Shown here one piece after another: positions 10,068 through 49,885 of a stretch of 49,885 bases of DNA. How positions within the stretch are numbered: position 1 is the first letter of the stretch; each line of letters opens with the position of its first letter. A program made the position numbers and the translations under genes. This stretch comes from Phycisphaerales bacterium (GTDB taxonomy: Bacteria > Planctomycetota > Phycisphaerae > WQYP01). Location: positions 1-49,885 of the forward strand of contig DAIDJN010000079.1 of the NCBI GenBank assembly GCA_027451365.1, given 5' to 3'. The notes under the pieces were generated by a model, which saw only the letters and a program-made list of their open reading frames with translations, searched no databases and was not told the DNA's origin.

Positions 10068-10098
10068 TTCTCCAAAAGTGAATTACTAAGGAATAGAA

Positions 10099-13000: not shown

Positions 13001-14784
13001 CACAGGCCACCCAGCTTTACAAATCGGCACAAAAAATTGAGCCTGCCGGTACCCAGGTCGCGCAGCGCAGACTTGGTGATATGTATTTTAATATTAAGCA
13101 TTTTAACAAAGCCCTTGGCTATTACGGGCCGCTTTTCAAGGCCCGACCCAAAGATCGAACGGTGCAATTGCGTTACATTGAAACGCTCATCCGAGCCGGT
13201 CAGCCAGCCAAAGGATTGGCACTTCTGGATGCGGATGTTTTTGCCAAAAATCAAAAGGACGAAGCCGGACTGGAACTGAAGGGGCTTGCTTTCCGTCGGC
13301 AGGGACATTTGCATAAATCCATTCAAGCCTTAAATCAGGCTTTGGCGCTTAATCCAAACGATACGCGGGCTTTGGAAAGCCGCGCGGAAGACGAAATGGC
13401 TCTTCCGGGCGGTAAACTGGATCGGGCACTGGCGGATTTGGCCCTGATTAATTCCCTCGTGCCAAACGATCTGCAATCGCGCCTGCAGACCGCGGCCATT
13501 TATAATCAGCAGGGGCATTTTGCCCGCGCGGTTCAGGAATACCGTACGATATTGAATAAGGTGGCGCCCAAGAATCCGACCGTCGAACAGTTGTATGCCA
13601 ACCTGCTGTTCAATATGTCGGTGCAGTTTGTCCATCTTTCACCCAATGACATTTCGTCACATGCCGCATCCCTGCGCACGATTAATCCGGTTCAGCGACT
13701 GCATCGGTTGCTTCTGACGCTCACGGCGGCCGAGCCTCGACAGCCGGCCTGGTGGATTCTCCGTGCCCGCCTTGATCTACTCGAAGGGCGAAAGAGCCGG
13801 GCCATGACGTTGGCACGCCGTGCCTATCTTGCGGATAACCGCGGTTCGATGGGTGCGGCGGATTACGGTCAAATTCTTAATGCCGGCGGAGAATGGTCCA
13901 CCGCGTTGAAAATCAGCACCAAGGCGCTGGCTTTGGCACCTGGATTCGTACCACTTTATCTGGTGCGGGCGCAAGCGAATGTCGGATTAAAAAACTGGCC
14001 AGAGGGTACCCGAGACTATACTAAAGCGCTGGATCTGTCACTTTCCAATTCGGCGGCATTTTTGGATATAGCCTCGAATTTTATCAATGATTATCATGGG
14101 GCCGCAACGGCCGAACTGGTCCGCAAAGCCGTGGATGATTTTATCGCGAAACATCCGAGTGCGACGGCGGAAAATGGGGCGCTCGCAGCCATCCTGGCGT
14201 TCAAGCAGGCCAGATACAGCGATGCACTAACCGCTGCCAAAAGTGCTTTGGCGGCCAACCCTCCGGCGGAAATGCGAAATGAAATGTTGCGAACGGTGGC
14301 TCTGTCGGCGTATGAACTTCAGCAATATCCGATAGCGAAAAAGTATTATCGCGAAATTCTGGCGGCCACACCCGATGATGCCAGCGTGCTGAATAATCTG
14401 GCCTATCTGCTGGCCGCCAAACTAAAAGACCCGGTGGAAGCGCTTCATTACGCCGAAAAGGCCAATAAATTGCAGGCCCATGCGGAAGGCTCGGGGCTGT
14501 ACTGTAACGATCCAAATCTGCTGGATACCCTGGGATGGGCCAGATTCCTGAATAAGGATTACACTGGGGCCTATAACGCGCTTCATCATGCGTTACGGTT
14601 TAATCCGCCGGCGGCTGCATATTACCATCTAGCCCGCGTGTTGGTGGCCCAAAAGCGGGACACGGAAGCGATTCGCTTTTTGGAAAAAGCGATCGCGATG
14701 GCGGAAAAAAATCACTTGACTATTCTGGCTCGTGCCGAATTGCTACTTAAATCTATCCAATCGACCAAGGCCGTTGGAGGATGA
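10099..14784 (+). CDS. Very large membrane-anchored TPR protein (PEP-CTERM/EPS system-associated, PrsT-like)
   Basis: 1561 aa; N-terminal TM followed by many TPR units; C-terminal SVLNNLAYLLA...LDTLGWARF...YHLARVL typical of PEP-CTERM-system TPR proteins; lies in the exosortase operon. Confidence 0.85.
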   Translation: MARRVNTKFLISLVTLLVMAVALSGGVYWWMNVYRNNPTRLIASAQRALKAGNVDAAISYYQRAAIAAEKEHLPTAAQMSMQLGDLYFANTASNPERYAYAISNWENAVQINPRLLPAQLRLLNVTWKLAKLARQRAEWQSLQKIASTVIELDPKNARAWRLRAAAELGLLSGLSSISHSNFSQAKHDLTQACKLAPQNYKPFQALATIYLAQASAELKQNLIGPKRAAKLVDTGLNLMLGFVRTHPKDALGWIGLANVYRFQPDGLPKAEQAMATATKLAPTNRHVVLARVNMLLATNAKPAAVILSLQRLIAVEPNSMQNYLLLGQYQMRLGQAAAAVKTLLAGMHHPSAGQGLTPLINRQRRLEINQELTDAYLQLAGATASGSVEHKAYVLHAADSLAWVKQHQPVTPWVMLYTGRLRFLQGRPDEALRWLKKAAGVLSPENPADLQLWFRDHQWQSQVYASMNQSGAALAQLDQINAVVHGQPLVLLDRASLSLAQDPAGALADAQRVLKAVPGNLAAITIEAKALAALNRVPELRKLLAGVDTSGSLELALLKSRLDWLDGHYHRVLTVMAPWRKAAPGDSRIVLTTYAALAALHERTEASKLFDAAIKAEPNNVQFLVLSDQLANPKNVMPKINFAGIGSDVLGIVMPVSESKNAQLKAIKRLRDPFIRDITLFNYYLGAGHRTKANAALTAAAKLKPNDSQVVEAQFSLALAAKNYKQAKAVERRAVDGNLDGANGATYRARLAIAQNDLGAAVKVLRSALRDHPYNTTLRTYYGDALLLSGDIDAGIRALHTALASAPDDIAAIKALVKYDLARPSQASIENAVGLINQGLAYQPLDSELNHWNNSLADLYGPPAPAIARREKLLKSDPGDIQNIMRLGLLYSRNNQPDKAIALLKKAWKANPTSLPLAEELGSLYSRNNHFSAAANLYGGLAESKNATTALAARLLLGDLYETQGNIAQATQLYKSAQKIEPAGTQVAQRRLGDMYFNIKHFNKALGYYGPLFKARPKDRTVQLRYIETLIRAGQPAKGLALLDADVFAKNQKDEAGLELKGLAFRRQGHLHKSIQALNQALALNPNDTRALESRAEDEMALPGGKLDRALADLALINSLVPNDLQSRLQTAAIYNQQGHFARAVQEYRTILNKVAPKNPTVEQLYANLLFNMSVQFVHLSPNDISSHAASLRTINPVQRLHRLLLTLTAAEPRQPAWWILRARLDLLEGRKSRAMTLARRAYLADNRGSMGAADYGQILNAGGEWSTALKISTKALALAPGFVPLYLVRAQANVGLKNWPEGTRDYTKALDLSLSNSAAFLDIASNFINDYHGAATAELVRKAVDDFIAKHPSATAENGALAAILAFKQARYSDALTAAKSALAANPPAEMRNEMLRTVALSAYELQQYPIAKKYYREILAATPDDASVLNNLAYLLAAKLKDPVEALHYAEKANKLQAHAEGSGLYCNDPNLLDTLGWARFLNKDYTGAYNALHHALRFNPPAAAYYHLARVLVAQKRDTEAIRFLEKAIAMAEKNHLTILARAELLLKSIQSTKAVGG

Positions 14785-14799
14785 AATTTTACATGAGTG

Positions 14800-14838
14800 C
14801 TTTCACGCTTGCGTGAAAGTTTAATCGTCCCGTATAGT
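14800..14838 (+). promoter_or_regulatory. Putative sigma70 promoter for wzc with an overlapping palindromic operator
   Basis: Perfect inverted repeat CTTTCACGC-TT-GCGTGAAAG (14800-14819) overlaps TTGCGT (-35-like, 14809-14814); TATAGT (-10-like) at 14833-14838; 18-bp spacing. Confidence 0.5.
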
Positions 14839-14903
14839 AAGGGTTTGTCTGAGGGTTGTCTCTCAATAGAGATGGCTGTTTTACGAATGAATCAGGGGAA
14901 GTT

Positions 14904-17129
14904 ATGACGCAGTCCAATGCGATAGTGCCGGTTGTCCCACAATCTGGCGCCAATGAAGCGACATCCGGTCCAAAACTTGGTTTTGTACTTAAAAAGCATC
15001 GAGTCCTGATTGTCGTGGGGACCGGGCTTGGATTCCTGGTGGCATTAGGATTGTTCTTCGCGCTTCGAAAATATTTGCCATATTACCGTGCGGTGTCGGT
15101 GCTGCAGGTGCTTCCGCGTACACCCAATCCGTTGCAATCTCATACCATTAATTACGGGACCGCAAATGGCGAAATTAAGCGATTAATCAATTCCCAGATC
15201 ATTATTGTCCGAAGCCCGGTGGTACTTAACGAAGCACTTCAGACTGCGGCATTTCAACACAATTATAAATTTCCAAACGATCCGGCCCGCAAAAGCACAT
15301 GGCTGGAGGCCAATCCGGTTTCGCCTTTGCATGAGCTCAGGAAAGATCTGGTTGTGGAACCGGAGCCAGATTCCAACGACTTTACCATTTCACTGGAATG
15401 GCATGACGCCCGTGAAACCGCGGCGCTGGTCAACGCCGTCACCAACACGTATGTTCAGTACGTTCAAAATCTTGAACAGACTTCGTTAAACCGCGAAGCC
15501 CGCGCGGTCGCGGCCGCGCAGGCCCGGGTGGCTGCCAAGGTACAGGCCCAGCAGCGCGAGTTGGAACTGTATCGACGTTCGCATAATGTCCCCGGTCTTA
15601 TCGAACGCGAAGCGATTCTCGAGGCGACACTGGCGAATCTCAGTCAACTGGTGACTAAAACTCAAATTAATGCTCAGGCCGCGCAGTCAAATTATGAATC
15701 AATTAAAAAGCAGGTTCAAAACAATACGCTTCAGCTTTCGCCGCGCATGCAGGAACTGGTCAACGATGATCCGACGTTGCGAAGCCTGACGCTTAACCTG
15801 CTTGCCTTAAAGCAGGAAGTTGCGGTTTCTAAAAGTACACTTGGCGCGGACCACCGGTCTACAATTGCGCTGGAAATTCGCGAAGCCAGCGTGCAGAAGC
15901 AGATTGATCGGCTTCGACAGAAACTTAAGGTTCGCTCCCGCCTGCAGATGCAGCAGGGCGCGAAATCTGAGGCTGAGCAAGCTCTGGCAGTTGCGGTGGA
16001 AACGCGCAAGCGTCGCGATGAAAAACAACGTGAAGTCAGCGATCTTGATGATGCACTGGCCAAATTTCGCAACCAACAGGCTCTTCTGTTAACCCAGGAA
16101 AAAATGCTCGCGAGCCTGACCAAGCGGGCCGACCTTTTTAATCTGCGCAGCATGCATAACGCATCACGGGTGGAATTGCAGTATCTGGCGTCTGTTCCGG
16201 AACGATGTGCTTTTCCGCGGCTCAAGCGATTCCTTGTGCTTGGGCCGATTCTCGGTCTTCTGGCTTCATTGGCGCTGGCCTATCTGTTGGAATTGACCAA
16301 TACGCGCGTCCGCACACCGCGCGACATCAGCGGAATTATGCGGCTTCCCTTGCTAGGTTTCATCCCGGACCATGCCGACGATACCATGCTCAGTGGTAGT
16401 CCGATGACTTGTGTTCGGACCAGCCCGGCTTCCATGACGGCCGAATCGTTCCGGCAAATTCGCGGCCGGCTTGCCGTGGTGCATGGCGAAAAGCCGCTAC
16501 AGACACTGCTGGTAGCCAGTTTTTCCCCGGCGGGTGGCGCTTCAACTGTGGCCAGCAATATCGCCAATGGCATCGCCCTTAGCGAACTGCGAGTGCTGCT
16601 TGTCGATGCGAATTTCTATCGCCCGGTATTGCAGACAATTTACTCCAATATTCCATCGGTTGGCCTGGCTGATGTGCTGACCGGGCGCTGCACGCTGGAA
16701 CAGGCCGTGGTCCCCTGTGCGGACCTGCCAACACTGCACCTGATGGGTGCCGGCGCTCGGTCCAAGGCTCCCAATGAGATTACTGAACACAGGGCCTTTC
16801 CTGACCTTATTGCGCAGCTTCGCGGCCGTTATGACATGATTATTTTTGATGGCGCGCCGCTTACGTTTGTGTCAGATTCCATTAATCTGGCTTCTAAAGT
16901 CGACGGCGTGATTGCGGTCGTGCGAGCTGGCCAGATCAGTCGCGGCACCGTAGCTCGTATTCGTGATCAACTGTCCCAGGTTCGCGCCAATTTGGTGGGA
17001 ATTGTGCTGAATGCGACCCAAAGCTGGAACGCCGGCTACTTCAAGGAAAACTATCGGACGTTCTTCGAATATGCCAGCCAGCAGGGTTCCGCTGGAGCAC
17101 AGCGGAATCTGCCGCGTGGAAAATCCTGA
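14904..17129 (+). CDS. Wzc/GumC-type polysaccharide co-polymerase with a degenerate BY-kinase domain
   Basis: TM-coiled coil-TM layout, then VRTPRDI...LPLLGFIP and ESFRQIR; P-loop region ASFSPAGGAST, VLLVDANFYRP, MIIFDGAP; C-terminal GYFKENYRTFFEY. Confidence 0.88.
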   Translation: MTQSNAIVPVVPQSGANEATSGPKLGFVLKKHRVLIVVGTGLGFLVALGLFFALRKYLPYYRAVSVLQVLPRTPNPLQSHTINYGTANGEIKRLINSQIIIVRSPVVLNEALQTAAFQHNYKFPNDPARKSTWLEANPVSPLHELRKDLVVEPEPDSNDFTISLEWHDARETAALVNAVTNTYVQYVQNLEQTSLNREARAVAAAQARVAAKVQAQQRELELYRRSHNVPGLIEREAILEATLANLSQLVTKTQINAQAAQSNYESIKKQVQNNTLQLSPRMQELVNDDPTLRSLTLNLLALKQEVAVSKSTLGADHRSTIALEIREASVQKQIDRLRQKLKVRSRLQMQQGAKSEAEQALAVAVETRKRRDEKQREVSDLDDALAKFRNQQALLLTQEKMLASLTKRADLFNLRSMHNASRVELQYLASVPERCAFPRLKRFLVLGPILGLLASLALAYLLELTNTRVRTPRDISGIMRLPLLGFIPDHADDTMLSGSPMTCVRTSPASMTAESFRQIRGRLAVVHGEKPLQTLLVASFSPAGGASTVASNIANGIALSELRVLLVDANFYRPVLQTIYSNIPSVGLADVLTGRCTLEQAVVPCADLPTLHLMGAGARSKAPNEITEHRAFPDLIAQLRGRYDMIIFDGAPLTFVSDSINLASKVDGVIAVVRAGQISRGTVARIRDQLSQVRANLVGIVLNATQSWNAGYFKENYRTFFEYASQQGSAGAQRNLPRGKS

Positions 17130-25367: not shown

Positions 25368-27077
25368 TCAGCCCGCCAGTTTGGTTACGGTAACTTTTTT
25401 GATGAAATACGGCCCGGACGTAATATTAAAATTATAAGCCCAGCAGCTTACAAATTGGTCGTCCGTCATTTTCCATTTGACTGTATGCCAACCTCCACCC
25501 GCCGGAATATTGCAGGCACCGGCGTTCTTGTCTGCCCAGCCCCAGCTTGCGGGCGATTCATAATGAAGGACAATCGCAGCCGGTTGACTGGGGGCGGCGC
25601 GGCGTACGAGAGCCGTTATTTCAATTGGCTCGCGGGTATAAGACAAAAAATTAGGATCCACTTCGAAGGTAATTCCACCGGGAACATTCCCGGAGCGGGC
25701 GGAACCGCCGTATGCCGCCGTTTGTTTTATCAGGGCACGGGCGGCCACCAAATGAAGGCCCTTCTGGATAATGGCTTTACCCAGTGAGACTGAAACCGTT
25801 CTGGCATGGGTGAAATTGCCGTTCCATGGGAACTGTTTGAATTTATCAGCAATCGCCAGTTTTACCAGTCCGCCCGGAACGCCGATAATTAAAATCGGGG
25901 ATTGTGTAAGCCGGCAGCTTGTGGCCCGCGTGACATGGCCTGTTAACGGGTGCACTATTTCTACAGTTGAATCAAACGAAAGGCGGCTCGCGGCGCGATT
26001 TTGTGCCCAGGCGGACAGGACCGTGTAGCGGGCACCCTGAAATACGAATCCGTTATTATGTGCAGAAAGGGGAACCCACCCAAGATAAACAGGATGCTGC
26101 CCCAGGTACCTGATCAGTTGGGCCATAGCCGTATAGGCGGGACGCCGGTTGCCCTTTCGGGTCAGGAGTCCCATCGGGCCGCTATCGCCATCCATGCCTT
26201 CGAACCAATTGATGCATGTGGCTCCTTCGGCGATGCCCATGGTGTAAGCTTGCACCAGAGCGCGGGCCTGGATGGCTGGGTCCGGATGGGCATTGTAGCC
26301 CACTTCTGTAAACCAGATGGGCACCCCTGCTCTTGAAGGGTCTACCGCCCTTAGCATTTTCCGAACCGTTGGGATAATGTGCATATAAACAGAGTCTTCA
26401 TTATTGGTGATGGCGTTTGCCAGAACTTCGTAAGGGTGAAGAGTGATGTAATCAAAATGATTTTTGCCACCCGCGGCGATGACCTGCTGCAGATAATTTA
26501 TATCAACAGATTTTGCCGCCATTCCAATTTTGCAATTTGGATACACCTTTTTTGCCGCGCGATATGCGCTAATCAGAATTCGCGCGTAGTCGGCTGCAGT
26601 CTGATGTCTGCCGGTGCCGTTGGGCGGTTCGTTCCAAACCTCCCAGTACTTTATCCGCCCATGCATTTGCGTGACGGTTCGCGTCACATAATTGGACCAG
26701 GCTCGCAAATTATGGACGGGCAGCGTACCAGGGGCATCTTGGGTATCACCGGGAGGAATGCCGTACAGCAGGCCGCCAGGCACGATCTGGTGGCCGGCCA
26801 GATAGGAAAACTCCTTGGGATTGCAATAGCGGAGTTGGTGAATGCCGATTGCCTCCATTTGGGGGATCCACTTTGAAAGCGCGCGAATCGACACCCCGTT
26901 TTCGTGATCACTTCCGATTCCGAACGGACTGATTCCGGGAAACGTGGTGGCCGTTAAACCCGGTGGTCCGGCGGTGGCGTTTGCAGGTAAATGGCCAAAA
27001 ATCGCTGCCAGTGTCGCGCAGGCGGTCGCTATTCTTTTGGCCCGTTTAAGGAATTGCAACATCCGGTATTTTATCAT
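25368..27077 (-). CDS. Secreted clan GH-A glycoside hydrolase (GH39/GH5-like) with C-terminal beta-domains
   Basis: Signal peptide; acid/base motif YWEVWNEP, FDYITLHPY and nucleophile motif IWFTEVGY. Confidence 0.8.
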   Translation of the reverse strand: MIKYRMLQFLKRAKRIATACATLAAIFGHLPANATAGPPGLTATTFPGISPFGIGSDHENGVSIRALSKWIPQMEAIGIHQLRYCNPKEFSYLAGHQIVPGGLLYGIPPGDTQDAPGTLPVHNLRAWSNYVTRTVTQMHGRIKYWEVWNEPPNGTGRHQTAADYARILISAYRAAKKVYPNCKIGMAAKSVDINYLQQVIAAGGKNHFDYITLHPYEVLANAITNNEDSVYMHIIPTVRKMLRAVDPSRAGVPIWFTEVGYNAHPDPAIQARALVQAYTMGIAEGATCINWFEGMDGDSGPMGLLTRKGNRRPAYTAMAQLIRYLGQHPVYLGWVPLSAHNNGFVFQGARYTVLSAWAQNRAASRLSFDSTVEIVHPLTGHVTRATSCRLTQSPILIIGVPGGLVKLAIADKFKQFPWNGNFTHARTVSVSLGKAIIQKGLHLVAARALIKQTAAYGGSARSGNVPGGITFEVDPNFLSYTREPIEITALVRRAAPSQPAAIVLHYESPASWGWADKNAGACNIPAGGGWHTVKWKMTDDQFVSCWAYNFNITSGPYFIKKVTVTKLAG

Positions 27078-27289: not shown

Positions 27290-28486
27290 ATGCGTCCACA
27301 TTCTTTCATCGCGTTGTGTGCCCTGGCTGCGGTTTCCGCCGTCGGGCTGGTTTCACCGGTAAAGGCCAATCCGACCGTGGCAGCGGGTTATAGTCTGACT
27401 GCTTTTGCATCGCCATTTGCCGATGCCGGACTTAATCAGACCAATGTAGCCGGCACCGCGCCCGTGACACCAATGGTTTCATCGCCGGATGATATTGCTA
27501 TCAGCGGCGGTAACGTATTTATTGGCTGGGGCAACAATGTTCCAGGAGATGGCGGCAATGGCGGTTTGAGCACACTTGCGGAATACAATTTGAACGGCAC
27601 GCTGGAAAAGTCGTTCAATATTCAGGGGCATCTGGAGGGCATTGCGGTGGATCCGGCAACCGGATTGGTCTACACAGATCAAAACGAAGATGGCAACTCT
27701 TCCATGACGATTGTGAACACTGTCACCGGTAGTCAGGCTCGATTTGGCTATCCGAATCCATCCGCACATGGCGGCGGCTTTGACGGTCTGCAATTGCTGA
27801 ATGGAAATCTGTATGCCAGTGCCTCAAGTCCGAATACTGTGAACGTAAGTCCAAGCAACCCCAATGGCACAAATGTCAGCCCGCTCATTTATCAGGTCAC
27901 GGCCAATACGGCCAACTACCCATATAACGCGATTCCGACGGGAATTGTAAATGGCAATGCCCAGGCCACGAATCTGAATAATGGCCAAACGGTGACCATG
28001 AACAATTTTGATCCGGATTCCCTGAACGTCACACCATCGGGCAGTCTGATTGTAACCAATGAAAGCGGTGCCCAGCTTACCATTGTGAGCAATCCGGGTG
28101 CGACCAGCCAGAGCGTGGGCGTGCTGAATCTGACCAATACCGTCACCGGTGCCGCCGCCAGTGTGGATGACACTGGTTTTGCCACCAGCGCCAACGGCTC
28201 CCTGCTTTTTGCCGATGGCAAGACGAATGTCGTTTATGCCCTGACGGCCATTGGCGGTTTTTCCGCTGATCAGGCCTTTTCATCAGACAAAACCAATCAC
28301 ACGCTGGATGCCCTTAACTTTTCCACCGGCGCGTTGACACCCATTGTGACCGGGTTGGGCAGTCCGGCGGGTATTGCGTTCAGCAATACGCCGGTCGGAA
28401 CGCCGGAACCCGCTTCGCTGCTGACATTTGCCGCGGGTGGCGCAATTCTGCTGCTGGCGCGGCGGCGAATGAACGCGGCACGATAA
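27290..28486 (+). CDS. PEP-CTERM sorting-domain surface protein (beta-propeller-like, Asn/Thr/Gly-rich)
   Basis: Signal peptide (…SPVKA); C-terminus TPEPASLLTFAAGGAILLLARRR = PEP motif, TM helix, basic cluster; AGGAG RBS. Confidence 0.92.
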   Translation: MRPHSFIALCALAAVSAVGLVSPVKANPTVAAGYSLTAFASPFADAGLNQTNVAGTAPVTPMVSSPDDIAISGGNVFIGWGNNVPGDGGNGGLSTLAEYNLNGTLEKSFNIQGHLEGIAVDPATGLVYTDQNEDGNSSMTIVNTVTGSQARFGYPNPSAHGGGFDGLQLLNGNLYASASSPNTVNVSPSNPNGTNVSPLIYQVTANTANYPYNAIPTGIVNGNAQATNLNNGQTVTMNNFDPDSLNVTPSGSLIVTNESGAQLTIVSNPGATSQSVGVLNLTNTVTGAAASVDDTGFATSANGSLLFADGKTNVVYALTAIGGFSADQAFSSDKTNHTLDALNFSTGALTPIVTGLGSPAGIAFSNTPVGTPEPASLLTFAAGGAILLLARRRMNAAR

Positions 28487-31220: not shown

Positions 31221-34200
31221 TTAATTTCCGAAGAGATTCTTAATCAGACTCCCGCCGGATTTTTTCAATACATTTCCGATATTTTTTCCAACATTTTTGA
31301 GCGGTTTCCCGCTTAGCTTCAGTTGCGGACTGCTGGTGGTTCCGGTAATAGCCAGCGGAATCGGCACGGTCAATCCCGCGCCCGTGATGCTTACGTCCTG
31401 ATCAATCTGATTGTTCAGTCCAACCCAGCCGGAGAAATCAAGGCCAAAAGAGGTCAGCACCATCTTCATGTGCTGGTAGTAAATTTTGCCCTGCTTAAGA
31501 TTAAAATCCGTCGGTCGGATGCCGCTATCCGCCATTTTCATGTTTCCGGCACCGAGGAACCCCAGCGGTGAAGCCATATTGCTGATCATGCCCAGCAATG
31601 GGGAATTGGAAGTCAGGTGAATCACACTGATTGTGCCAGAGAAGGTCCCGGTTTTCTGCAGCGCGCTGTATTCCAACGGCAGATCAGCGTTTTTGAGTGT
31701 CAGGTTGAATTGCCCCGCCAGCGTCATAAGGCCGGTTCCGTTGGCACCACCGCCCCACGCGATAGGCAGAAATTTCAGCAGTGTCCCGCCCATTGGCGCG
31801 TTGATGTTGATGCCATTGGCCAATTGCAGATCGTTGGCGGTATAGTCAGGAATTGACTTATTCAGATTAATAATACCGCCAAGGTTGAGCGTTCCTTTGT
31901 TGGCAGGAATGGCGCTGTTGGCAATGGCAATCATTCCCTTGCTTTCACTGAATCCGACGGATCCAGGTCCAAGGGTCAGCCCGTCAATGGAAATGGTGTT
32001 AAACTTCAGCGCGGTGGGCGCTATGACCAGATTTCTGACTTTGCGCAGGCCGCTGTCAGGTGTCAGACTGCCTGTAATGGCCAGAACCATGGAATGTTTG
32101 CCGGTCATCATAAGGCCCGCAGGCAAAAACGGACCGAGCAGTGAATTAAGACGCGCCAGATCGTAATTGACAGTCAGTTGCAGATTTTCAGGCTGCTTAT
32201 CGGACCAGCAGGCGACATTTTTATCGGCAAGTTCGACGGAGTCCGAACCGCTTCCGGAAACTGCGGTTTCAGAAATCACGCAGTCCTGCGTGGCCGTAAA
32301 CGTGTCGGCATCAAGGTCGGCGACGCCGCCAATGGCCGCTGCAATGTTGGTTGCCGGCAGGGCCGAAGTATTGCCTTTGGTGGCAAGTTGGTAACCAGCA
32401 ACTTTGGCCTGAAGGTGAAGTGTGATGTCCCGGCCCGCGGTGGCAATCGCACTTTGCAGTGAAAGTTTGCCGGCCAGCGTTTTATCTGTCGGCAGACGGC
32501 CAACGGCAACCAGCAGCGGACGCAGCTTGGTCAGATCAGCGGTCAAATTTAAACCCGGACAATCCACCGTCGGAGCCATCCCCGCAGCCAGGTTAATGGT
32601 GACCGGCTTGCTTATGGCAAGGTCGGCCGCATGGTCAGTTGTGGACAATAGCAGACTTTGCACGTCAACGTGTGTGCTTGCACCCATGATGAGTGACGCG
32701 CTGGTATCCAGACTAGCCTGGCGCAGAGTAAAAACACCCGATTGAACGGCTGGACCGACACCGGCCACTTTCAGATTGGCTGCCACAAGATGGCAGAGCG
32801 AAATTGTGACTTTGCCCGGTGCCCAAGCGGCGTTGATTTTCGAGCCAGCAAGATTCCCGGCGATGCTATATTTTTTTAAACTCGGACTGAATTGTGCCGC
32901 AAGTTGTTCCAGTGCTGCCAAAGACCCATTTTTAATTGCAATTCGGGCAACTGGAACAGTCCAGCCACTCCCGTGCGGGTTGGAGGCTTGAATCCGACCG
33001 TTGAAATTTATCTCCGGTGTGGCCATCACCAGACGCGAATCGATTGCGGAAATGCCGGTGGCGGATTTTGCCACCGCACCCGTCGCGGAAAGATCAAGCG
33101 ATGTTTCTGAAGCTTCCGCCGCCGCTGCGCTGGATTTGAAATGAAACGCAGTCAGATGTAGCGATGTGTCATATAAAATGTTGCTGGTAAAAGCATGTTG
33201 GACGGCCAAACTGATTTTTAACGTTCCGTTAGTGGAAAGGCCATGCAAATTCACCAGTTCGCCGGCTTGGGCGGCCAAGGCGGAGAGTTTCAACATTACG
33301 GTGGCGTTAAACGCGCCTGGGCGGCCCTTCAGCCGCTGAACTTGAATGGCGATATTCGGTTCAGTGCGAGTCGCGCCCTGAATCAGTCGGATGTGATCCG
33401 CATTCCATTTGTTTTCCGTGCGGTCCGCCAGAGCGGTAAGCTCAAGGGGTGCAATTTGGAATTTCCGATCCTGAATTCTGCCCGCCAGGTCGGAAACCCC
33501 CAAATTAGCTGAAACACTGGAATTGTTTCCTTGGCTGGTGAGGCTGGCCGTCAGGTGGATGGACCCGGTTTTCAGATGCAGACCTTTGCCATTGAGTTTC
33601 AACATGTGGGGCAAATTTGCCGCGATAAGTGGCGCGTTGAGTGTCATTTGTGTTTGCAGTCCGGTCGTGCCCCAATTTGTGCTGCCAGATCGTATGGCAT
33701 CAATCGCTTTCAGCGTTGTATGGCCCTTGGCACTGAAACGAAAGGGGGCTGCGGTGATTGAAAAGTTACGCACGTTCAATTTTCCAGCCGCCAGCGCGCC
33801 GTCCATTGCCACGGTGCAGGTGCCGAGTTGCGGGCTGTCACCATGCAGCAGGGATCCACCCAGAGAGAGTTGTTTCACCACCAGGTTGCCAGCCAGGGTA
33901 CCTTCGCCTGGTTTGGTTATTGTGGCCAGAATCTTGCCATGCAGTACGCCATCCACGGTGATCGGCGCGTTGACGCGGCGTAATATTTCACGGAAATATG
34001 CAAATTGGCGGGCCTTGACTTCGACAGTGCCGGTCATTGCCGCAATTGGAAGCAGTGACCTGTTCTTTAATGCATGAATGTTCGCGGTTATGGCGAGCAT
34101 CGCGGGCAGTCCGCGGCCATGGGTGACGGTCATATCCACTGCCGCGGTAAGGGGCTTGCCCATTGTGTCAAAGCCAATATTCGCCCCAACACTTAAAACA

Positions 34201-35627
34201 TGCGGACGTTTATGACCGGCCGCGACAAGGGTCAGCGGCGAGAGCTGGAATGTTACTGTGCCATCGGCTGCCGGCAATCTGGCGGATTGACCGTTCGGAC
34301 CAGATGGTGTGGTGCCGCTTTGGAGCGGGCCTCGCAGCGTGACGTTGGCGGCGAACGACGTCTGACCGCCACTGACGTTCATACCCGCTGGAATCTGGCA
34401 CGTATGACGCAACTCGGTCATGATTTTTGCCAGCGGTGCCGCAGCGGTAACTTTTAACGACGCGCCGCCGACTTTTTCGGTGGTGGATTGACTCGGGAGT
34501 ATTGCTCCGATCTCTCCACCACCGGTTACCGCCAGATTTCCCATATCGGAAGTCAAGCCAAGTTGCTGAATGTGGAAGGCGGTCTGGTCCCAGGTAAAAT
34601 CAACAGGCAGTTGAACATGGCCGAGATTGGCGCGATCCCCTTTTAATGCCGCCCCAGCAAGCATGCAGTGGTCGATGGTCAGATTCCCATGAATCTTTCC
34701 TGCCATGCCGGAAAGCGATGCATACGCCAGCGTCAGATTCAAATCACCCGTCGGGCTGATTTTAATGCCCGCAGAGTCCAGCACTGGTTGCAGGGCGGCC
34801 AAGTCGAGTCCAAAGACCGCCAGATTGGTTTGACCACTGATCTTATTAATCGGCCGCATCCGCCGATTCGCGAAAAGATACAACGCGGCATCCGCAGTAA
34901 TTTTAGCGGATGGTTTACCCGCCAGACCAACCCGCGTGGCGAATGTTATTTTGACCGGCTGATGATTTTTCTTCAGATTCAGTGCCAGTGTCATAAGGGT
35001 GTCTTCAGCTTGCACCTGTGGCCCGGCGGGAGACCGAAAGGTCAGGTGATTGATTGCAGCCGTTAAATTCAATTCAATGGCTGGAAGTTGCGAACCGGCG
35101 GCTTGCGGCGCGGGCGAACCTGCCGGTGCTGTTGCGGTGGCAGGCGTTGCGGCCGTCGCAGGCGTTGCGGCCGTCGCAGGCGTCCGACTGGCAAAAGCCT
35201 GGGCCAAATTTAATCCGGCGGCACTTTGCCCAAGTGTGGCGTTCTGAACCGTGAGCTTGACTGTGCCAAGATTTTTCCAGTTGGCAGCCAGGTGGATCAG
35301 GCTTAGCCCCGTTTTCACATTGACTCCGGTCAGAACCACGTTGCCCGCCGGATCGCGAACCGTCAGGCCCTGAATTCCGGCAGGACTAAACCAGCCCAGG
35401 GACAATTGACCTATGGTGACATTCCCGCGAATTCGGCTGTTGATCTCCGATTGAATGATGGCCACGCCCGGTCCGGTACACAGGAGGCTTGGCAAGGCAA
35501 GCAGCAGGAGGATCAGCAGGATAAAAACGCCGCCCAAAATTAGCGGCCAGCGCCGCCGCCGGGACGAGGAAGATTTCGGCGCTAAAGGGGCCGTGCCGCC
35601 GGAATTGGTGCTGGTGATATTCGACAT
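31221..35627 (-). CDS. AsmA/TamB-like large periplasm-spanning beta-rich protein
   Basis: 1468 aa; N-terminal RRRR plus TM anchor; GNVTIGQLSLGWFSPAGIQGLTVRDPAG; alternating beta pattern throughout; AsmA_2-like C-terminus (FSGWVGLNNQID...IPLAITGTTSSPQL). Confidence 0.75.
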   Translation of the reverse strand: MSNITSTNSGGTAPLAPKSSSSRRRRWPLILGGVFILLILLLLALPSLLCTGPGVAIIQSEINSRIRGNVTIGQLSLGWFSPAGIQGLTVRDPAGNVVLTGVNVKTGLSLIHLAANWKNLGTVKLTVQNATLGQSAAGLNLAQAFASRTPATAATPATAATPATATAPAGSPAPQAAGSQLPAIELNLTAAINHLTFRSPAGPQVQAEDTLMTLALNLKKNHQPVKITFATRVGLAGKPSAKITADAALYLFANRRMRPINKISGQTNLAVFGLDLAALQPVLDSAGIKISPTGDLNLTLAYASLSGMAGKIHGNLTIDHCMLAGAALKGDRANLGHVQLPVDFTWDQTAFHIQQLGLTSDMGNLAVTGGGEIGAILPSQSTTEKVGGASLKVTAAAPLAKIMTELRHTCQIPAGMNVSGGQTSFAANVTLRGPLQSGTTPSGPNGQSARLPAADGTVTFQLSPLTLVAAGHKRPHVLSVGANIGFDTMGKPLTAAVDMTVTHGRGLPAMLAITANIHALKNRSLLPIAAMTGTVEVKARQFAYFREILRRVNAPITVDGVLHGKILATITKPGEGTLAGNLVVKQLSLGGSLLHGDSPQLGTCTVAMDGALAAGKLNVRNFSITAAPFRFSAKGHTTLKAIDAIRSGSTNWGTTGLQTQMTLNAPLIAANLPHMLKLNGKGLHLKTGSIHLTASLTSQGNNSSVSANLGVSDLAGRIQDRKFQIAPLELTALADRTENKWNADHIRLIQGATRTEPNIAIQVQRLKGRPGAFNATVMLKLSALAAQAGELVNLHGLSTNGTLKISLAVQHAFTSNILYDTSLHLTAFHFKSSAAAAEASETSLDLSATGAVAKSATGISAIDSRLVMATPEINFNGRIQASNPHGSGWTVPVARIAIKNGSLAALEQLAAQFSPSLKKYSIAGNLAGSKINAAWAPGKVTISLCHLVAANLKVAGVGPAVQSGVFTLRQASLDTSASLIMGASTHVDVQSLLLSTTDHAADLAISKPVTINLAAGMAPTVDCPGLNLTADLTKLRPLLVAVGRLPTDKTLAGKLSLQSAIATAGRDITLHLQAKVAGYQLATKGNTSALPATNIAAAIGGVADLDADTFTATQDCVISETAVSGSGSDSVELADKNVACWSDKQPENLQLTVNYDLARLNSLLGPFLPAGLMMTGKHSMVLAITGSLTPDSGLRKVRNLVIAPTALKFNTISIDGLTLGPGSVGFSESKGMIAIANSAIPANKGTLNLGGIINLNKSIPDYTANDLQLANGININAPMGGTLLKFLPIAWGGGANGTGLMTLAGQFNLTLKNADLPLEYSALQKTGTFSGTISVIHLTSNSPLLGMISNMASPLGFLGAGNMKMADSGIRPTDFNLKQGKIYYQHMKMVLTSFGLDFSGWVGLNNQIDQDVSITGAGLTVPIPLAITGTTSSPQLKLSGKPLKNVGKNIGNVLKKSGGSLIKNLFGN
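35140..35183 (-). repeat. 18-bp in-frame tandem repeat encoding (TPATAA)n linker
   Basis: GCAGGCGTTGCGGCCGTC occurs twice exactly (35140-35175), plus a partial third copy. Confidence 0.85.
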
Positions 35628-44608: not shown

Positions 44609-45094
44609 TCCGCCAAACCGGACAACGGCCGAAATCCGGATGCGGCAGGGCCTGCATGTGATTGTATAATGTACATATATTGGCAATTAAAGTAGTAGAC
44701 CGTAGTTCCCGGCACGAAAAGTGGAAAACCCCTGTATTTACGGTGGTGTCCTTTGCCTTTGCCATTCACCCTGACTGTGCCATTTGCATTTTCACTGTCA
44801 TATCCGGTGATGGGTAATGAAATTTCAGTCCATTTGTTTTCCAGGCCTGAGCTTCGATCAGATGAATCGCACTGGCTGGTTTGGAAAGGTGGATAACGGC
44901 GGTATGCGTTGGAATAAATTTACGGAAGTTTAAATCGTGGTCAGAATATTGATACTTGGATGCGTGAAAGACCCGATCCCCGGCCACCGTCGCAATACCA
45001 GCGGCCTCTTAAAGAACAGAGTATCTGCGTATTTCGCACAACCAGACACGGCCTGCTGACGAACCAAAGTGAACGCGGCGTGTCGGGATTGACC

Positions 45095-45282
45095 AAGGAA
45101 GGTCGCCACGCAATGGAATACCAACCACCAAATGGATTGGACTTTTCACGCCGGACCAATGCGGCCACGGTTAATCCGCTCTCCGGCAAAAGCGACAGGA
45201 CATGATGCCAAAATGCGCGACGATTTTCATTGGATAACCCTTCCCGCTGTTTTGCTTTTGACTCCGTGAAATTGCTCAACAA
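45095..45282 (-). pseudogene. Probable IS66-family TnpA (HTH accessory protein) remnant
   Basis: RRAFWHHVLSLLPESGLTVAALVRRE...AWRPSL resembles the TnpA pattern W...SGL(S/T)...(F/Y)CRRE...WR..L. No TnpB/TnpC or terminal repeats seen. Confidence 0.45.
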
Positions 45283-45384
45283 TCACAGACTCAGAATATT
45301 CGCCACCAGAAAAATCCCGCCAGATGGGATTCGCGGGACGTTTGCGCGATACGTGGTGACGACCCATCAACGAAATATTTCCCC

Positions 45385-46074
45385 ATGTCGGTACCATCGG
45401 TTAAACTTTTGTGCATGTCAGCGGCTGAAGAAAAAATAATACTTTCCCGGATCAGGGCGGGCCTTGCCTGGCTGACGCCGCTGCTTTTTATTTTAGCGGC
45501 TTTGGTCGCCCTGGCTTCTGGCCTGGCTGGTCTGTCCAGCGCGTCGGCGAAAACGCTCGGCGTCCCGCAAAACCGTGCCTGGGGAAATTCCGCAGGAATG
45601 CTCCAATCACGTCCGGTTCAGACGCCGCAAAGCCTTGAATTGCAACGGGAAAACTCCATTGGCCGGTACGATTTGGCGCTGGATGATACTCTTGCCGCAG
45701 AGAGTACAGCAGTTCGAACGAACGCGGACTTGGTACAGGAAATCGGCACGCGTGCTGACGCTTGGGCTACGCGGCAGGGCCTGACCGGCACACCCCAACA
45801 GCTCGGGACGTGGGAGCATACTTACGCCAGAGACCTCCTGGAACGATACCAAAGCCTGTTTGGCGACCGAGGGTTGGTGACTGAGCGTTCGTGGCTTGGT
45901 AAGAATCCCGCTGCCTACGGAACCCCCGCTAGCGTTCGATTGGACGTTTTCGAGCCTAACACAGGCACCGTATGGGACTACAAGTTTGGCGTAACGTCGA
46001 TGAGCGCAGCACAACGGGCGCGAATCATGGCGAATGTACCCGGCGTGACTTCAATCACGGAGGTGCGCCCATGA
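45385..46074 (+). CDS. Short polymorphic toxin A: shared signal-peptide-like leader + C-terminal PD-(D/E)xK (restriction endonuclease-like) toxin domain
   Basis: Leader LTPLLFILAALVALASGLAGLSSASA|KT...QNRAW...RYDLALDDTLAAES; C-terminal GTWEH...TERSW.G...YGTPASVRLDV......VWDYKFG...Q, a pattern seen in Rhs-type toxin tips. Start is 45385 or 45415. Confidence 0.72.
   Translation: MSVPSVKLLCMSAAEEKIILSRIRAGLAWLTPLLFILAALVALASGLAGLSSASAKTLGVPQNRAWGNSAGMLQSRPVQTPQSLELQRENSIGRYDLALDDTLAAESTAVRTNADLVQEIGTRADAWATRQGLTGTPQQLGTWEHTYARDLLERYQSLFGDRGLVTERSWLGKNPAAYGTPASVRLDVFEPNTGTVWDYKFGVTSMSAAQRARIMANVPGVTSITEVRP
45470..45589 (+). repeat. Toxin-leader repeat, copy 1 (120 bp; 107/120 identical to 48047-48166)
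   Basis: Manual ungapped alignment from GGCTGACGCCGCTGCTTTTT to CCGTGCCTGGG.AAATT gives 13 mismatches. Confidence 0.95.
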
Positions 46075-46775
46075 AGAATGCCGTTGTTCTCACAAAATCG
46101 AACGAGAAGCGGATCACGGATGACTGGCAGCAGCAGATTCCGAGCCTTGGCGACTACCGGCCGAGGCGTCTGCTCAGGCGAGTTGGGCCGCTATTGGTTG
46201 GCGTCTGCCTGGAGCGCGATTCGAGCGGCAATAAGTACAAACCGACTTTCCATGTGCACTGCCTGGCGAAGGACGCTCCGGCCGTATTTCTTACCCTTCT
46301 GACGCAGCTTCGTTCGGAACATTCCGGCGGTCCTGATTTTATTCAAGTGCGATTTCACGAAGAGAGATACAAGGAAGCTGCCGCGCGGATGATCCACCAG
46401 TCGCTATTGTCACTTTCAGGCGACCTTCGACTGGAGCAGGTGATGGATGCTTACCGTCACTATATGGCTACGCCGATGGGCAAGCTGCAGGCAACGACCC
46501 TTTACCGCGACATGATTCTTTTATCGGCCTGGGCGGGTGATCAAGCCGGTGCGCTTAAGTTGTTGGATGCATGCCTTCACATCCGTAGTGACACTGAGTT
46601 CCAGCACCTAGGCGGCCGCGCTGCGTTTGGAGCCGAATGCCAGAAATTGATCGAGCACCCGGATTTGGTCCAACAGATGGTGGATTCACAGATTGCGGCC
46701 TTGGGCGTCGAAAATTTGCCGACAGCTAATCTTATCTGGAAGAATTCCGATACTGGCGGGCTCATGGCAAGGTAA
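46071..46775 (+). CDS. Putative cognate immunity protein for toxin A
   Basis: ATGA overlap with the toxin stop; GGAGG RBS at about 46059; 234-aa cytoplasmic protein; classic toxin-immunity gene order. Confidence 0.68.
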   Translation: MKNAVVLTKSNEKRITDDWQQQIPSLGDYRPRRLLRRVGPLLVGVCLERDSSGNKYKPTFHVHCLAKDAPAVFLTLLTQLRSEHSGGPDFIQVRFHEERYKEAAARMIHQSLLSLSGDLRLEQVMDAYRHYMATPMGKLQATTLYRDMILLSAWAGDQAGALKLLDACLHIRSDTEFQHLGGRAAFGAECQKLIEHPDLVQQMVDSQIAALGVENLPTANLIWKNSDTGGLMAR

Positions 46776-46818
46776 ATAGAGTTGGCATCCCGTTTTTTTG
46801 TATCCGCTTGTTTCACCC

Positions 46819-46905
46819 TTACTTCGGTGGCATCCTGTCATTCCCAGGCTCACGCAATGCGTACGCTGCGATCCGGGGCATGTTCGCATCAATAAGAAAA
46901 CGCAT
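46819..46905 (-). pseudogene. Truncated DUF5615 (PIN-like/Mut7-C-type) toxin N-terminus
   Basis: Own translation: MRFLIDANMPRIAAYALREPGND then a stop after 28 aa, matching the MRFLxDxNxP...LR..G.D start of DUF5615 proteins; GAGG RBS upstream. Confidence 0.55.
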
Positions 46906-47319
46906 CGGGCCTCGTCGTAAAATGTGTCACACGGGTAACGGGTGAAACTGTTCTTGTTCAACAAGCTTGCCGATGCTGCGATATCACCGATCCCAGTCTT
47001 CATGGCGCGATGACCCTTTGTCATTGCGGCCAATCGCATGGTAAAATGTCCGCCAATGAATGGCATTGAAGAAAAAGTCCGTTCCAGGTTGTCTGACCAC
47101 GGATATGCGATGTTGGAGGCCGTAATGGTAACGTGGCGGATCGTGGTGGCTGGCATGCTGGCTGCGTCCGTTGGTGGCTTGGCGGGTGTCGCCAGGGCGA
47201 GGCCACATCCGGTCCGCCCCCGGCCGGAATAGAGTCGCGTAAAGTGTCACGCACCGGTTCGATAGTTCGGGCAGGGCGTGGCCACCGGGGTTGCCATGGA
47301 TGTGGTAGAATAACTTTGT

Positions 47320-47793
47320 ATGAAGAGATCGGTTTACATTGAGACTACGATCCCGAGCTTTTACTATGAAGTTCGATCCGAGCCGGAGATGATCGCCCGG
47401 CGGGAAAGCACTCGGCGGTGGTGGCGCAAAGAGCGCCCGCGCTACAGTTTGCACAGTTCGGCATTCGTAATCGGTGAGTTGCAGGAAGGCCAGTACCCGG
47501 CGCGATCCGAAGCCTTGGCCATGGCCGAGTCCCTGAGCCTTCTTGAAATCGTCCCGGCGATCGAGGAGATCGTGTCTGTTTATTTACGGCGGAAACTCAT
47601 GCCGCTGGGGGATGCGTATCACTTGGCCATAGCGTCCTATTACGGAATGCACTTCGTGCTGACATGGAACTGCCGGCACCTGGCCAATGCCAATAAAGTC
47701 CGGCATTTGCAACTTGTCAACACCGAACTTGGTCTGGCGGCACCAATTGTGACAACACCGGACCTTTTGCTTACGGAGACTGACCATGACTGA
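47320..47793 (+). CDS. PIN-domain (VapC-like) toxin
   Basis: SVYIETTIPSFYY, SAFVIGEL, DAYHLAIAS, FVLTWNCRHLANANK, PIVTTPDLL. Confidence 0.88.
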   Translation: MKRSVYIETTIPSFYYEVRSEPEMIARRESTRRWWRKERPRYSLHSSAFVIGELQEGQYPARSEALAMAESLSLLEIVPAIEEIVSVYLRRKLMPLGDAYHLAIASYYGMHFVLTWNCRHLANANKVRHLQLVNTELGLAAPIVTTPDLLLTETDHD

Positions 47794-47962
47794 ATCCGAA
47801 GATGACGTGGTGGTGGAACGGGTTCGCGCCTCGCGGCGGCGGATCGTTAAACGCTGCGGGGGGGACAAGCATCGGATGTTTCGCTGGGCGAAACGGTTGG
47901 AAGCGGCGCATAAAGCCCGCGTGATCGGGTTTGAAACCTCCGGCGGCAGTCGTGGTGAATAA
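47786..47962 (+). CDS. Small putative antitoxin downstream of the PIN toxin (58 aa; not in ORF track)
   Basis: Own translation: MTESEDDVVVERVRASRRRIVKRCGGDKHRMFRWAKRLEAAHKARVIGFETSGGSRGE*. GGAG RBS; overlaps the PIN gene end; D.VVE.VR..R..I...CG.D pattern seen in partners of this PIN subfamily. Confidence 0.7.
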   Translation: MTESEDDVVVERVRASRRRIVKRCGGDKHRMFRWAKRLEAAHKARVIGFETSGGSRGE

Positions 47963-48000
47963 GCCACTGAAGATGCGGTTGGGAAAGCAGGATTTCAGCT

Positions 48001-48801
48001 ATGCATGGCACCGAACATCGGACTTTTTCTTTACGCCTTATCGCCGGGCTGACGCCGCTGCTTTTTCTTTTAGCCGCTTTAATCGCCCTGGCTTCTGGCC
48101 TGGTTGGTCCGTCCAGCGCGTCGGCCAAAACGCCTTGCACCCCGCAAAACCGTGCCTGGGAAAATTGCGGCAGTGCCGCCCGGCAAAAACTCCGCAACAC
48201 AGTTCGCCCGGCCCAACAGGAACACCTGACGTTAATTGGCCAAATACAGTGGCAGGCGACCACCAAAACCCATAAAACCTCCGGCTCCGCCGGTGGTGCA
48301 ACGGCAATACCCGCGCCTCACGCCGGAATTCCAAGCACGTTCCAGCAGTTGGTCATCTACCCCATCCACCCTACCGTCAGCCATTTTGGCCGCGACCCAC
48401 CGGTACGATTCCGGCGGACCATCCGATACGACCGCAGCGCCCGGTACGGCGTCGCCGTCAGTGTTTTCGTTGCCGCAGAGAGTGCAGGGACGTTGCGCGA
48501 AGGGTCATTCTCGATAGGGGATTGGTCTGGATATCCTCAGGGCGCTCCTCAGCCACAAGGGCCATTCAGGCTTCTTGAGGGGGAGGAGTTTGAAACAGCC
48601 AGAGATACGGCCAATGCTGCCAACAAGGCTATCCATGACGCCGACCCCTCGCTGGCCGGACAACACATACACGAGGTTCAGCCGGTGAAGTTTGGCGGCA
48701 GCCCAACCGATCCTGCCAACAAAATCCCGCTATCGCCACAGGCTCATCAGCCGTTTACGAATTGGTGGAACGCCCTAATGAGGAACATCAGAGGTGGTTG
48801 A
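48001..48801 (+). CDS. Short polymorphic toxin B: shared leader + C-terminal HNH-like nuclease toxin domain
   Basis: Leader LTPLLFLLAALIALASGLVGPSSASA|KT...QNRAW...RYGVAVSVFVAAES; toxin GSFSIGDWSGYP...GPFRLLEGEE...HIHEVQPVKFGGSPTDPANKIPL...H...WW (H-N-H-type pattern); followed by SMI1/KNR4. Confidence 0.78.
   Translation: MHGTEHRTFSLRLIAGLTPLLFLLAALIALASGLVGPSSASAKTPCTPQNRAWENCGSAARQKLRNTVRPAQQEHLTLIGQIQWQATTKTHKTSGSAGGATAIPAPHAGIPSTFQQLVIYPIHPTVSHFGRDPPVRFRRTIRYDRSARYGVAVSVFVAAESAGTLREGSFSIGDWSGYPQGAPQPQGPFRLLEGEEFETARDTANAANKAIHDADPSLAGQHIHEVQPVKFGGSPTDPANKIPLSPQAHQPFTNWWNALMRNIRGG
48047..48166 (+). repeat. Toxin-leader repeat, copy 2
   Basis: See 45470-45589. Confidence 0.95.
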
Positions 48802-49198
48802 TATGCGCCGATTTTTAGACCGTTTGAACCGTCGCCCCGGCGCGACCGACGCCGCGATCGCCGAGACCGAGAAGCAATTGGACGCGAAGCTTCCGACGGA
48901 GTACGTGGAGTTCCTGAATCTCACTAACGGGGGCGAGGGCTTCATTGGCAAGGAGTACATGATCCTCTGGAGTATCGAAGAATTGGTCTCGATGAATCGG
49001 TCGTACGAAGTTCAGAAGTATGTGCCGGGGATTTTGATCTTTGGATCGAACGGCGGCGGCGAAGCCTACGGATTCGACACCCGAACCCCGCAATGGCCGA
49101 TTGTCCAAGTACCTTTTGTGGGGATGGAGTGGCGCTATGCGAGGCCAATAGGTGAGTCGTATAGCGCGTTCTTGGGACGCCTGCATGAGACTGAGTAA
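48794..49198 (+). CDS. SMI1/KNR4 (SUKH superfamily) immunity protein
   Basis: PGATDAAIAETEKQLDAKLPTEYVEFLNLTNGGEG...LWSIEEL...IFGSNGGGEAYGFD; overlaps the end of toxin B. Confidence 0.9.
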   Translation: MVDMRRFLDRLNRRPGATDAAIAETEKQLDAKLPTEYVEFLNLTNGGEGFIGKEYMILWSIEELVSMNRSYEVQKYVPGILIFGSNGGGEAYGFDTRTPQWPIVQVPFVGMEWRYARPIGESYSAFLGRLHETE

Positions 49199-49438
49199 AT
49201 GAACGAATCAAATCGACAACGACGGCTGGCTGCCCCAGGTTATGAGGGAAAGGAGATATTCGAGATCACGCCGGTGATGCTCGGCGGTAGTCCGACCGAC
49301 CCTGCGAACAAGACGCTGTTGAGCAGGGAGGACCACATCAAAGCCGTGGTTTACTGGAACAAGATTATTGCGGACCTCCGCGCAACCGGAAGCAAACCCG
49401 GGCTCATGGCATCCATGAAGAGAAGTCAAGTGTGGTGA
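49199..49438 (+). CDS. Small protein homologous to the C-terminal half of toxin B, lacking the first putative catalytic His
   Basis: KEIFEITPVMLGGSPTDPANKTLLSREDH...YWN aligns with toxin QHIHEVQPVKFGGSPTDPANKIPLSPQAH...WWN. ATG immediately follows the SMI1 TAA. Confidence 0.75.
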   Translation: MNESNRQRRLAAPGYEGKEIFEITPVMLGGSPTDPANKTLLSREDHIKAVVYWNKIIADLRATGSKPGLMASMKRSQVW

Positions 49439-49788
49439 CAATATTTTTTTTGTGGCCGCATCGGCGGCCATTGTCTCAAATTGAATCAAAGCCCGGGGCA
49501 AGGGCCTGCGGCGGCGGCGAGGAATATGGACGATCACGGGGTATGCCAAGCATCCATTCGGCGTCAATCCGGGTTTGCCGGGATCGCGTCACTTCTTTTA
49601 TTTCGAGGCCGGCCCCATTCAGGATGGCGAGGTCGATCAAGTCGCCTCACGCCTTGCCAGGGGCCCAAGGACTTTTTGTGGGTTCTTCTGGGTTCCACGC
49701 GGCTGCCGTCCCGACACGTCGGGATTGCGCATTGACGCACAATTGGTCAGTGGTGAGGCTTTTCTTTTTAGCCGCCCGTTGTCCGGAA

Positions 49789-49885
49789 TTATTCCGTGCG
49801 TTGAGTTGTGACCTTGAGCGTTTCGGCGAGTTGGCCGGGAGTGAGGATGGTCAGGTTGGGGGCCAGTCGCCGCAGGCGTTTGGCT
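49789..49885 (-). CDS. 3' end of a gene running off the window; possibly another PIN-family TA toxin
   Basis: Own translation: ...AKRLRRLAPNLTILTPGQLAETLKVTTQRTE*; the (I/L)LTP-helix ending is typical of PIN proteins, but only 31 aa are visible. Confidence 0.35.
   Translation of the reverse strand, partial: AKRLRRLAPNLTILTPGQLAETLKVTTQRTE

Follow-up and report, generated by a model that had tools for sequence, protein, structure and literature searches.

Two genes in a 49,885-nucleotide contig of a Phycisphaerales bacterium (DAIDJN010000079.1, assembly GCA_027451365.1) encode a short conserved leader fused to different toxin tips, and a 14-bp repeat, TTGCCGCAGAGAGT, spans the constant/variable junction in both. 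We propose that this repeat is probably the core of a site at which the XerC-like recombinase of a primase-encoding mobile element carries out site-specific recombination. The feature is real and represents a variant form of tip displacement in polymorphic toxins, for which it offers a defined site and a candidate for a dedicated recombinase. The window (the whole stretch analysed) is the entire contig C79 of the source assembly, hereafter G000 (4.06 Mb, 93% complete, repeats may be missing). Each unit consists, in this order, of a leader, the hexamer GCCGCA, a toxin tip, an immunity gene, and cargo. Unless stated otherwise, coordinates refer to the window and to its forward strand.

The junction repeat and its distribution

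As the original prediction stated, TTGCCGCAGAGAGT is exact at 45692-45705 and 48470-48483, CCGGTACG begins 29 nt 5' of it in both copies (at 45663 and 48441), and an extension by four nucleotides (ACAG versus GCAG) gives 17/18 identity. The linkers are indeed unlike each other, but over the N-terminal 127 nt the two genes have 88% identity. Each copy of the repeat lies in frame in its open reading frame (ORF; 45385-46074 and 48001-48801) and reads [L/V]-A-A-E-S. The 14-mer has five exact copies in the genome, against 0.035 expected from base composition, and a looser pattern, TYGCCGCARAGRRT, has nine matches, against two for a reversed control. The motif was expected to recur at toxin boundaries, and all nine looser matches sit at toxin-tip starts: seven behind a short signal-peptide-like leader and two at orphan tips, which have neither a leader nor an in-frame start. 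Among the relatives, 42 of the 56 pattern matches were judged not to be at toxin tips. The invariant part of the repeat is the hexamer GCCGCA; the flanking TT and GAGAGT are variable, and conservation reaches approximately position +14.

Evidence for a probable DNA site at the junction

Twelve orphan tips, of which G000 has two and five relatives together have ten, start with the hexamer at a distance of 0-66 nt from the upstream stop codon, and the DNA upstream of them is unrelated. Eleven were retrieved by the DNA pattern, and are thus a biased set; the twelfth (L071) came from a protein-homology search and has the sequence TAA followed by GCCGCA. Searches with the tip proteins gave six further tip starts, four of which have GCC GCA behind unrelated upstream sequence; the background frequency of GCC GCA among AA[EK] in long ORFs is 78/1242 (6.3%).

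Then, we compared nine junction pairs for shared tips. In the four pairs with different upstream contexts, nucleotide identity begins at offsets of 0, 0, −1, and −4 nt from GCC, and upstream of the junction 5-12 of 38 positions match. Among the other five, identity begins a short way into the tip, past a small indel, in two; two have no nucleotide alignment, and one shares the leader. Tips also occur behind Rhs-type N-termini. In metagenome contigs from relatives of the source organism (four runs, two studies), the match to the leader end gives way at 45696-45710 to tips that differ between contigs. Two contigs begin at the junction and run into tip-1-like sequence, one of them with unrelated DNA upstream, and another links 45710 to 46764 with other DNA in between. 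No direct join of junction 1 to junction 2 was present among these contigs, a type of data that drops rare forms. Overall, the compared sequences indicate that tips change context at GCCGCA.

Junction residues were examined in 57 proteins, 53 of which could be scored. Ala-Ala is present in 48/53, followed by Glu or Lys in 48/53 and by Ser, Asn, Gly, or Asp in 47/53; for the residues after Ala-Ala, the codon families RAG and RRY appear to be a better fit than any chemical grouping. These residues could alternatively be a protein processing or release motif, identical in DNA by descent, with tips exchanged where the conserved region ends, through homologous or illegitimate recombination of the kind proposed for Rhs and CDI. 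Ala-Ala plus a small residue is peptidase-site-like, the LAA[EK] frame is retained in 48/53 leaders, and the upstream codons are invariant as well. Moreover, some orphans of contact-dependent inhibition (CDI) systems likewise share only the VENN-coding sequence (Poole 2011, PMC3150448). On the other hand, Glu and Lys are interchangeable at +3, the hexamer is retained in untranslatable orphans and behind unrelated N-termini, 6 to 14 bp is too short for RecA, and the equivalent hexamer of G763, a genome from another planctomycete family, is read in another frame, as His-Lys. We thus regard a protein-motif origin as unlikely and the junction repeat as very likely a DNA site, with Ala-Ala-Glu-Ser being mainly the translation of that site; it may have a secondary role as a cleavage motif.

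The original prediction had left a DNA crossover point and a proteolytic release motif side by side. The former is favored by the orphan junctions, the tips common to unrelated N-termini, the codon-family pattern, and the link to XerC-primase elements described below, while the latter is not supported as the cause of conservation. The proposed comparison of third codon positions proved weak among leader-fused copies, where it is not diagnostic because the upstream codons are also mostly invariant by descent (9/13 and 13/18 columns); the other contexts were needed.

The site is not general to the Rhs toxins of the family: among 34 Rhs C-termini found by regular expression, two of the 17 AA[EK] are encoded by GCC GCA (p = 0.29 versus the 6.3% background). 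This lack of enrichment argues against a codon habit, and it bears on a third explanation, that the identity has no function and was left behind by recent duplication or by gene conversion between paralogues. The mean leader identity of ~80% fits such a relic, but the orphans, the Rhs-type contexts, and the conservation on the side of mutually unrelated tips would be left unexplained. As the orphan-junction and shared-tip comparisons already largely refute it, we consider this explanation highly improbable.

Site geometry

Tyrosine recombinases use a 6-bp centre flanked by inverted arms. GCCGCA is invariant in all 17 correctly registered non-leader or divergent-leader junctions (an 18th row was out of register), and the consensus on its right side is RAGAGTRCA. 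In the non-leader junctions, the right-arm consensus AGAGTRCA and the left arm of the leader, TGTACTCT, are reverse complements of each other. Among the short-linker leaders, the terminal sequence is TGTACTCTT, GATACTCTT, or TTTACTCTT, and the inverted match is perfect over 8 bp in locus L023. Junction site 1 (45685..45708) has the left arm GATACTCTT, the centre GCCGCA at 45694-45699, and the right arm GAGAGTACA, the arms being partly inverted. Upstream of it lie the conserved box CCGGTACG and a GCG(C/T)NGG-type box (45663..45683), 18 nt before the hexamer. Junction site 2 (48463..48486, centre GCCGCA at 48472-48477) belongs to the long-linker type, in which the left arm is poorly inverted. 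The layout is likely a 6-bp centre, GCCGCA, between inverted arms, to judge from these alignments. No conserved attC-like hairpin was found among 13 junction folds, which were weak (−2.8 to −8.0 kcal/mol) and inconsistent.

Candidate recombinase and primase-XerC elements

In L027, the only such metagenome locus found, a tyrosine recombinase ends just before a leader; it matches NF002331/PRK01287 with 453.7 bits (cut-off 371). In G763, four close copies of this recombinase lie in tandem units, ordered as toxin tip, immunity gene, small two-gene module, primase (CHC2 and toprim), XerC, end sequence, and next tip. The two-gene module, which we take to be HicAB-like, is 76-78% identical to the DNA upstream of leaders in G000 (contig C9), G028, and G020, and a primase fragment is present in the L029 orphan array. 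By these matches, the cassettes appear to have parts in common with primase-XerC elements. The L027-type recombinase also matches 24 plasmid records, 11 of which were inspected, and the order toxin, immunity, helix-turn-helix (HTH), primase, and XerC is annotated in records of Janthinobacterium, Paraburkholderia, Pseudomonas, Enterobacter, and Lonsdalea.

In the intact elements G763, L093, L094, and L095, one hexamer is common to the element end, the full-length toxin, and any orphans. The hexamers of the four closely examined elements are GGTGCA, TCGGCA, TCCACA, and ACTGCG, each 18 nt past a GCGTCRGG-like box, the same spacing as that of the similar box in the G000 leaders. The non-coding end of L095 reads GCGTCGGG TGATACTG TT GGTGCA, the non-coding end of the Pseudomonas element is a near-match to the G000 short linker, and G763 has GGTACG at the same distance as CCGGTACG. 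The tips of intact elements, from another planctomycete family and from Proteobacteria, start at their own hexamer, in two reading frames. In Janthinobacterium, three tips abut the end of the preceding gene at the hexamer, like the orphans of G000. Two circular plasmid records (L102 and L103, from Lonsdalea and Shigella; 11.3 and 8.8 kb) contain only Rhs tip-immunity-SymE-HTH-primase-XerC units. Among the 401 genomes of the phylum that were searched, 11 have strong PRK01287 matches, several of them with the toxin-immunity-primase-XerC order. No leader or GCCGCA junction was seen in the PRK01287 regions inspected from these genomes (11 of 12), and these other elements seem to switch inside the Rhs core, without a leader.

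A DNA site could also be recombined by a host enzyme, such as the chromosomal XerC/D or another resident integrase, rather than by the XerC of the element. G000 has nine junctions and no PRK01287 gene, yet it has seven tyrosine-recombinase matches, two of them XerC/D-like, and the geometry of a 6-bp centre is Xer-like. However, the hexamer differs by element lineage, each lying beside its own xerC, the site is presumably unlike dif, and the assembly is incomplete (93%), possibly with repeats missing. On balance, we consider action by a host enzyme quite unlikely. As this genome lacks such a recombinase, its cassettes are likely non-autonomous, being either relics or mobilised in trans.

Under recombination by an element-encoded enzyme, the leader would be the end of a mobile element, and the XerC-like recombinase would bind inverted arms (TGTACTCTY and RAGAGTRCA) around the 6-bp centre. 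It would integrate or excise units made of a tip plus its immunity gene, with or without the primase-XerC machinery. An incoming tip would land in frame behind the N-terminus and shift the previous one further 3'. Because the element end of these cassettes is itself an open frame that includes a signal-like stretch, a tip displaced in this way would remain a short toxin that may be secreted. Loss of the machinery would then leave compact arrays like that of the window.

Several observations weigh against this proposal. No recombination event was observed. The direct link between leader and XerC is a single 1.8-kb contig, the close recombinase is found in only 1 of 44 genomes of the family, and G000 has neither a PRK01287 gene over the cut-off nor a primase remnant, at 93% completeness. 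At the junction itself, two of the six tips found by protein search are without the hexamer, 5/53 leaders are without Ala-Ala, and the left arms of long-linker and orphan junctions are degenerate and poorly inverted. Of 22 element loci, L095 is the only one in which a profile built from 14 family junctions placed the true junction first among coding-strand matches, and a reverse-strand match there outscored it. A universal site profile was rejected on its failure in the other 21 loci, and because of this failure the cross-lineage alignment of element ends was set by hand. The tips of the circular records start within the Rhs core and not at GCCGCA, and these records are possibly collapsed tandem repeats. 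Lastly, variation in the leader codons is equal at the three positions (23, 25, and 22 of 48); the leader is thus weakly constrained as a protein, and from its codons a functional secreted product is uncertain.

The short-leader toxin family

Judging from their predicted domains, the short-leader proteins form a family of polymorphic toxins whose N-terminus is very short. A conserved N-terminus is joined to diverse C-terminal toxin domains: DddA-like, TNT, AHH, Tox-REase-7, and Tox-HNH-HHH tips were found on homologous leaders (34 proteins scanned, most without a match). Immunity genes are adjacent, with SMI1/KNR4 behind tip 2 and the gene behind tip 1 assigned by position only. G000 contains seven leader-tip fusions with two linker types, on contigs C9, C40, C45, C76, and C79, and the average leader identity is that given above. 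The leader has no Pfam or NCBIfam match, retrieved nothing from Atlas, and is absent from the viral contig scans; with a distant-leader profile, G000 was the sole match among the 401 genomes.

Some arrays depart from the common plan. In L020 (12424-14943), a leader start is joined to an 839-aa frame unlike a toxin tip. L029 (8000-13530) is nested: a repeated segment of ~65 aa starts at one hexamer, and a second junction precedes each tip. On contig C65 of G000 (963-1051), an orphan tip is broken after 29 codons by a repeat present on at least six other contigs. G000 also has 39 Rhs-core matches, many in short frames, and several relatives have 20-64. Some Rhs-core frames begin after a stop with an MV(A/V)AA(E/D)-like peptide, which suggests a second swapping module.

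Organization of the two units

Leader 1 (45385..45693) is of the short-linker type and supplies the left half of the site with its 3' end. It contains a hydrophobic stretch (hydropathy 2.48 over 17 residues) and an ASA-K sequence, on the basis of which a signal peptide is predicted. Toxin tip 1 (45694..46074, 126 aa) has a paralogous tip on C40 and no family or PDB match. Its acidic pattern is presumably restriction-endonuclease-like, and its predicted model is of low confidence (pLDDT 53) and too poor to use. The start of the probable immunity gene 1 (46071..46775) overlaps the stop of the toxin; the gene has no Pfam match, and its assignment is by position only.

A conserved non-coding box follows (46763..46842). 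Further copies lie in G000 on C9 (2038 and 6889) and C82 (72592), and in L020, L023, L047, L062, and L068; the C82 copy precedes a gene that we take to be relaxase-like. In arrays, the box comes after the terminal immunity gene, and the hexamer after the internal ones; the AAGAGT within the box is inverse to the ACTCTT at the leader end. A third leader has a truncated start (47038..47086), and a PIN-like gene with a small partner ORF (47320..47962; PIN E = 7.5e-4, below the cut-off) is likely toxin-antitoxin cargo, as predicted from sequence similarity. The segment 47772-48060 is also present in the array of a relative.

Leader 2 (48001..48471) is of the long-linker type. Toxin tip 2 (48472..48801, 109 aa) has no Pfam match; Atlas returned HNH and Tox-GHH clusters at 0.91-0.95, which is a lead and not an alignment, and the tip is likely an HNH/EndoVII nuclease by this resemblance. 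Immunity gene 2 (48803..49198) belongs to SMI1/KNR4 (SUKH; E = 8.5e-17, above the cut-off). Directly 3' of it lies a degenerate copy of the HNH-like tip-2 domain (49199..49438, 41% identity), which is without the key histidines and ends inside a repeat. Repeats found on several other contigs bound the array on both sides (45200-45345 and 49402-49885), and 44941-45282 on the reverse strand, with no Pfam match, is presumably a transposase-helper-like fragment. Elsewhere in the window, positions 6119-17129 hold an exopolysaccharide export cluster with an exosortase, DUF3485, and a 1561-aa TPR protein, and the ORFs 25368-27077, 27290-28486, and 31221-35627 (569, 398, and 1468 aa) have no Pfam match.

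Discussion

The mechanism by which Rhs, CDI, and related weapons exchange their toxin ends is an open question. The arrays described here resemble Rhs displacement (PMC2935791) and CDI orphans (PMC3150448) in having a constant N-terminus, a variable tip with an immunity gene, and downstream orphans. They differ in that the crossover is fixed at a hexamer and linked to a recombinase, and in that the scaffold is a leader of 100-160 aa, without an Rhs core, haemagglutinin repeats, or VENN. Indeed, neither window toxin has an Rhs family match (YD-repeat core, DPxG), and haemagglutinin repeats, the VENN motif, and cdiB are all absent from the 29 window ORFs scanned. Sequential displacement leading to arrays is also described for type VI secretion system effector-immunity modules of Vibrio cholerae (Kirchberger 2017, PMC5361080). 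Its authors propose homology-facilitated illegitimate recombination and report having no evidence of an integrase. Both PMC2935791 and PMC5361080 state that an integrase acting in tip displacement was not known, and attribute the exchange to homologous or illegitimate recombination. The displacement work on Rhs and CDI does postulate a circular intermediate (Jackson 2009, PMC2935791; Poole 2011, PMC3150448).

The closest relatives are the primase (CHC2/toprim)-XerC (NF002331, PRK01287) units that stand beside haemagglutinin or Rhs genes in public records, and which share the recombinase family and the change of tip at a hexamer and appear to share the cargo and a similar end box and spacing. 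In contrast to these, G000 has no primase or xerC in cis, whereas L027 has xerC in cis; the element end is an open signal-like frame in G000 and is non-coding or stop-bounded in G763 and L095. Like integrons, the arrays have a tyrosine recombinase, an ordered arrangement, a short conserved unit start, and old units pushed back. Unlike integrons, the L027 enzyme is not IntI (116.5 bits versus a cut-off of 265, TIGR02249), the core is GCCGCA with no GTTRRRY and no conserved attC-like hairpin, and the site lies inside a coding frame and produces fusions. The rAID systems of Bacteroidales (bioRxiv 10.1101/471110) also have a Xer-family recombinase together with arrayed genes of interbacterial conflict, but behind their XerD-like gene stand orphan immunity genes with intergenic repeats, while here toxin tips are fused in frame. 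Full-text literature searches, in which most subscription journals are not covered, returned no publication describing this element, the genes of which are annotated in public records.

A broader reading, to which we give slightly less than an even chance, is that small primase-XerC elements carry and swap toxin tips across phyla at lineage-specific in-gene hexamers, and provide the Rhs and CDI models with the circular intermediate and integrase that they lack. In this planctomycete lineage, the element end would have become a signal-peptide leader, and displaced tips would have become stand-alone secreted toxins, an "in-frame toxin integron."

A recombinase capable of in-frame fusion of coding sequences at a short site might be useful as a tool. 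With a named recombinase family, candidate circular forms, and a site defined to ~30 bp, the swap mechanism can be tested with a simple reporter. The short-leader toxin family is apparently unannotated, with 53 proteins carrying the junction and no Pfam or NCBIfam model on those scanned. If the proposed mechanism is true, these arrays would have a dedicated enzyme for a toxin swapping so far ascribed to general recombination.

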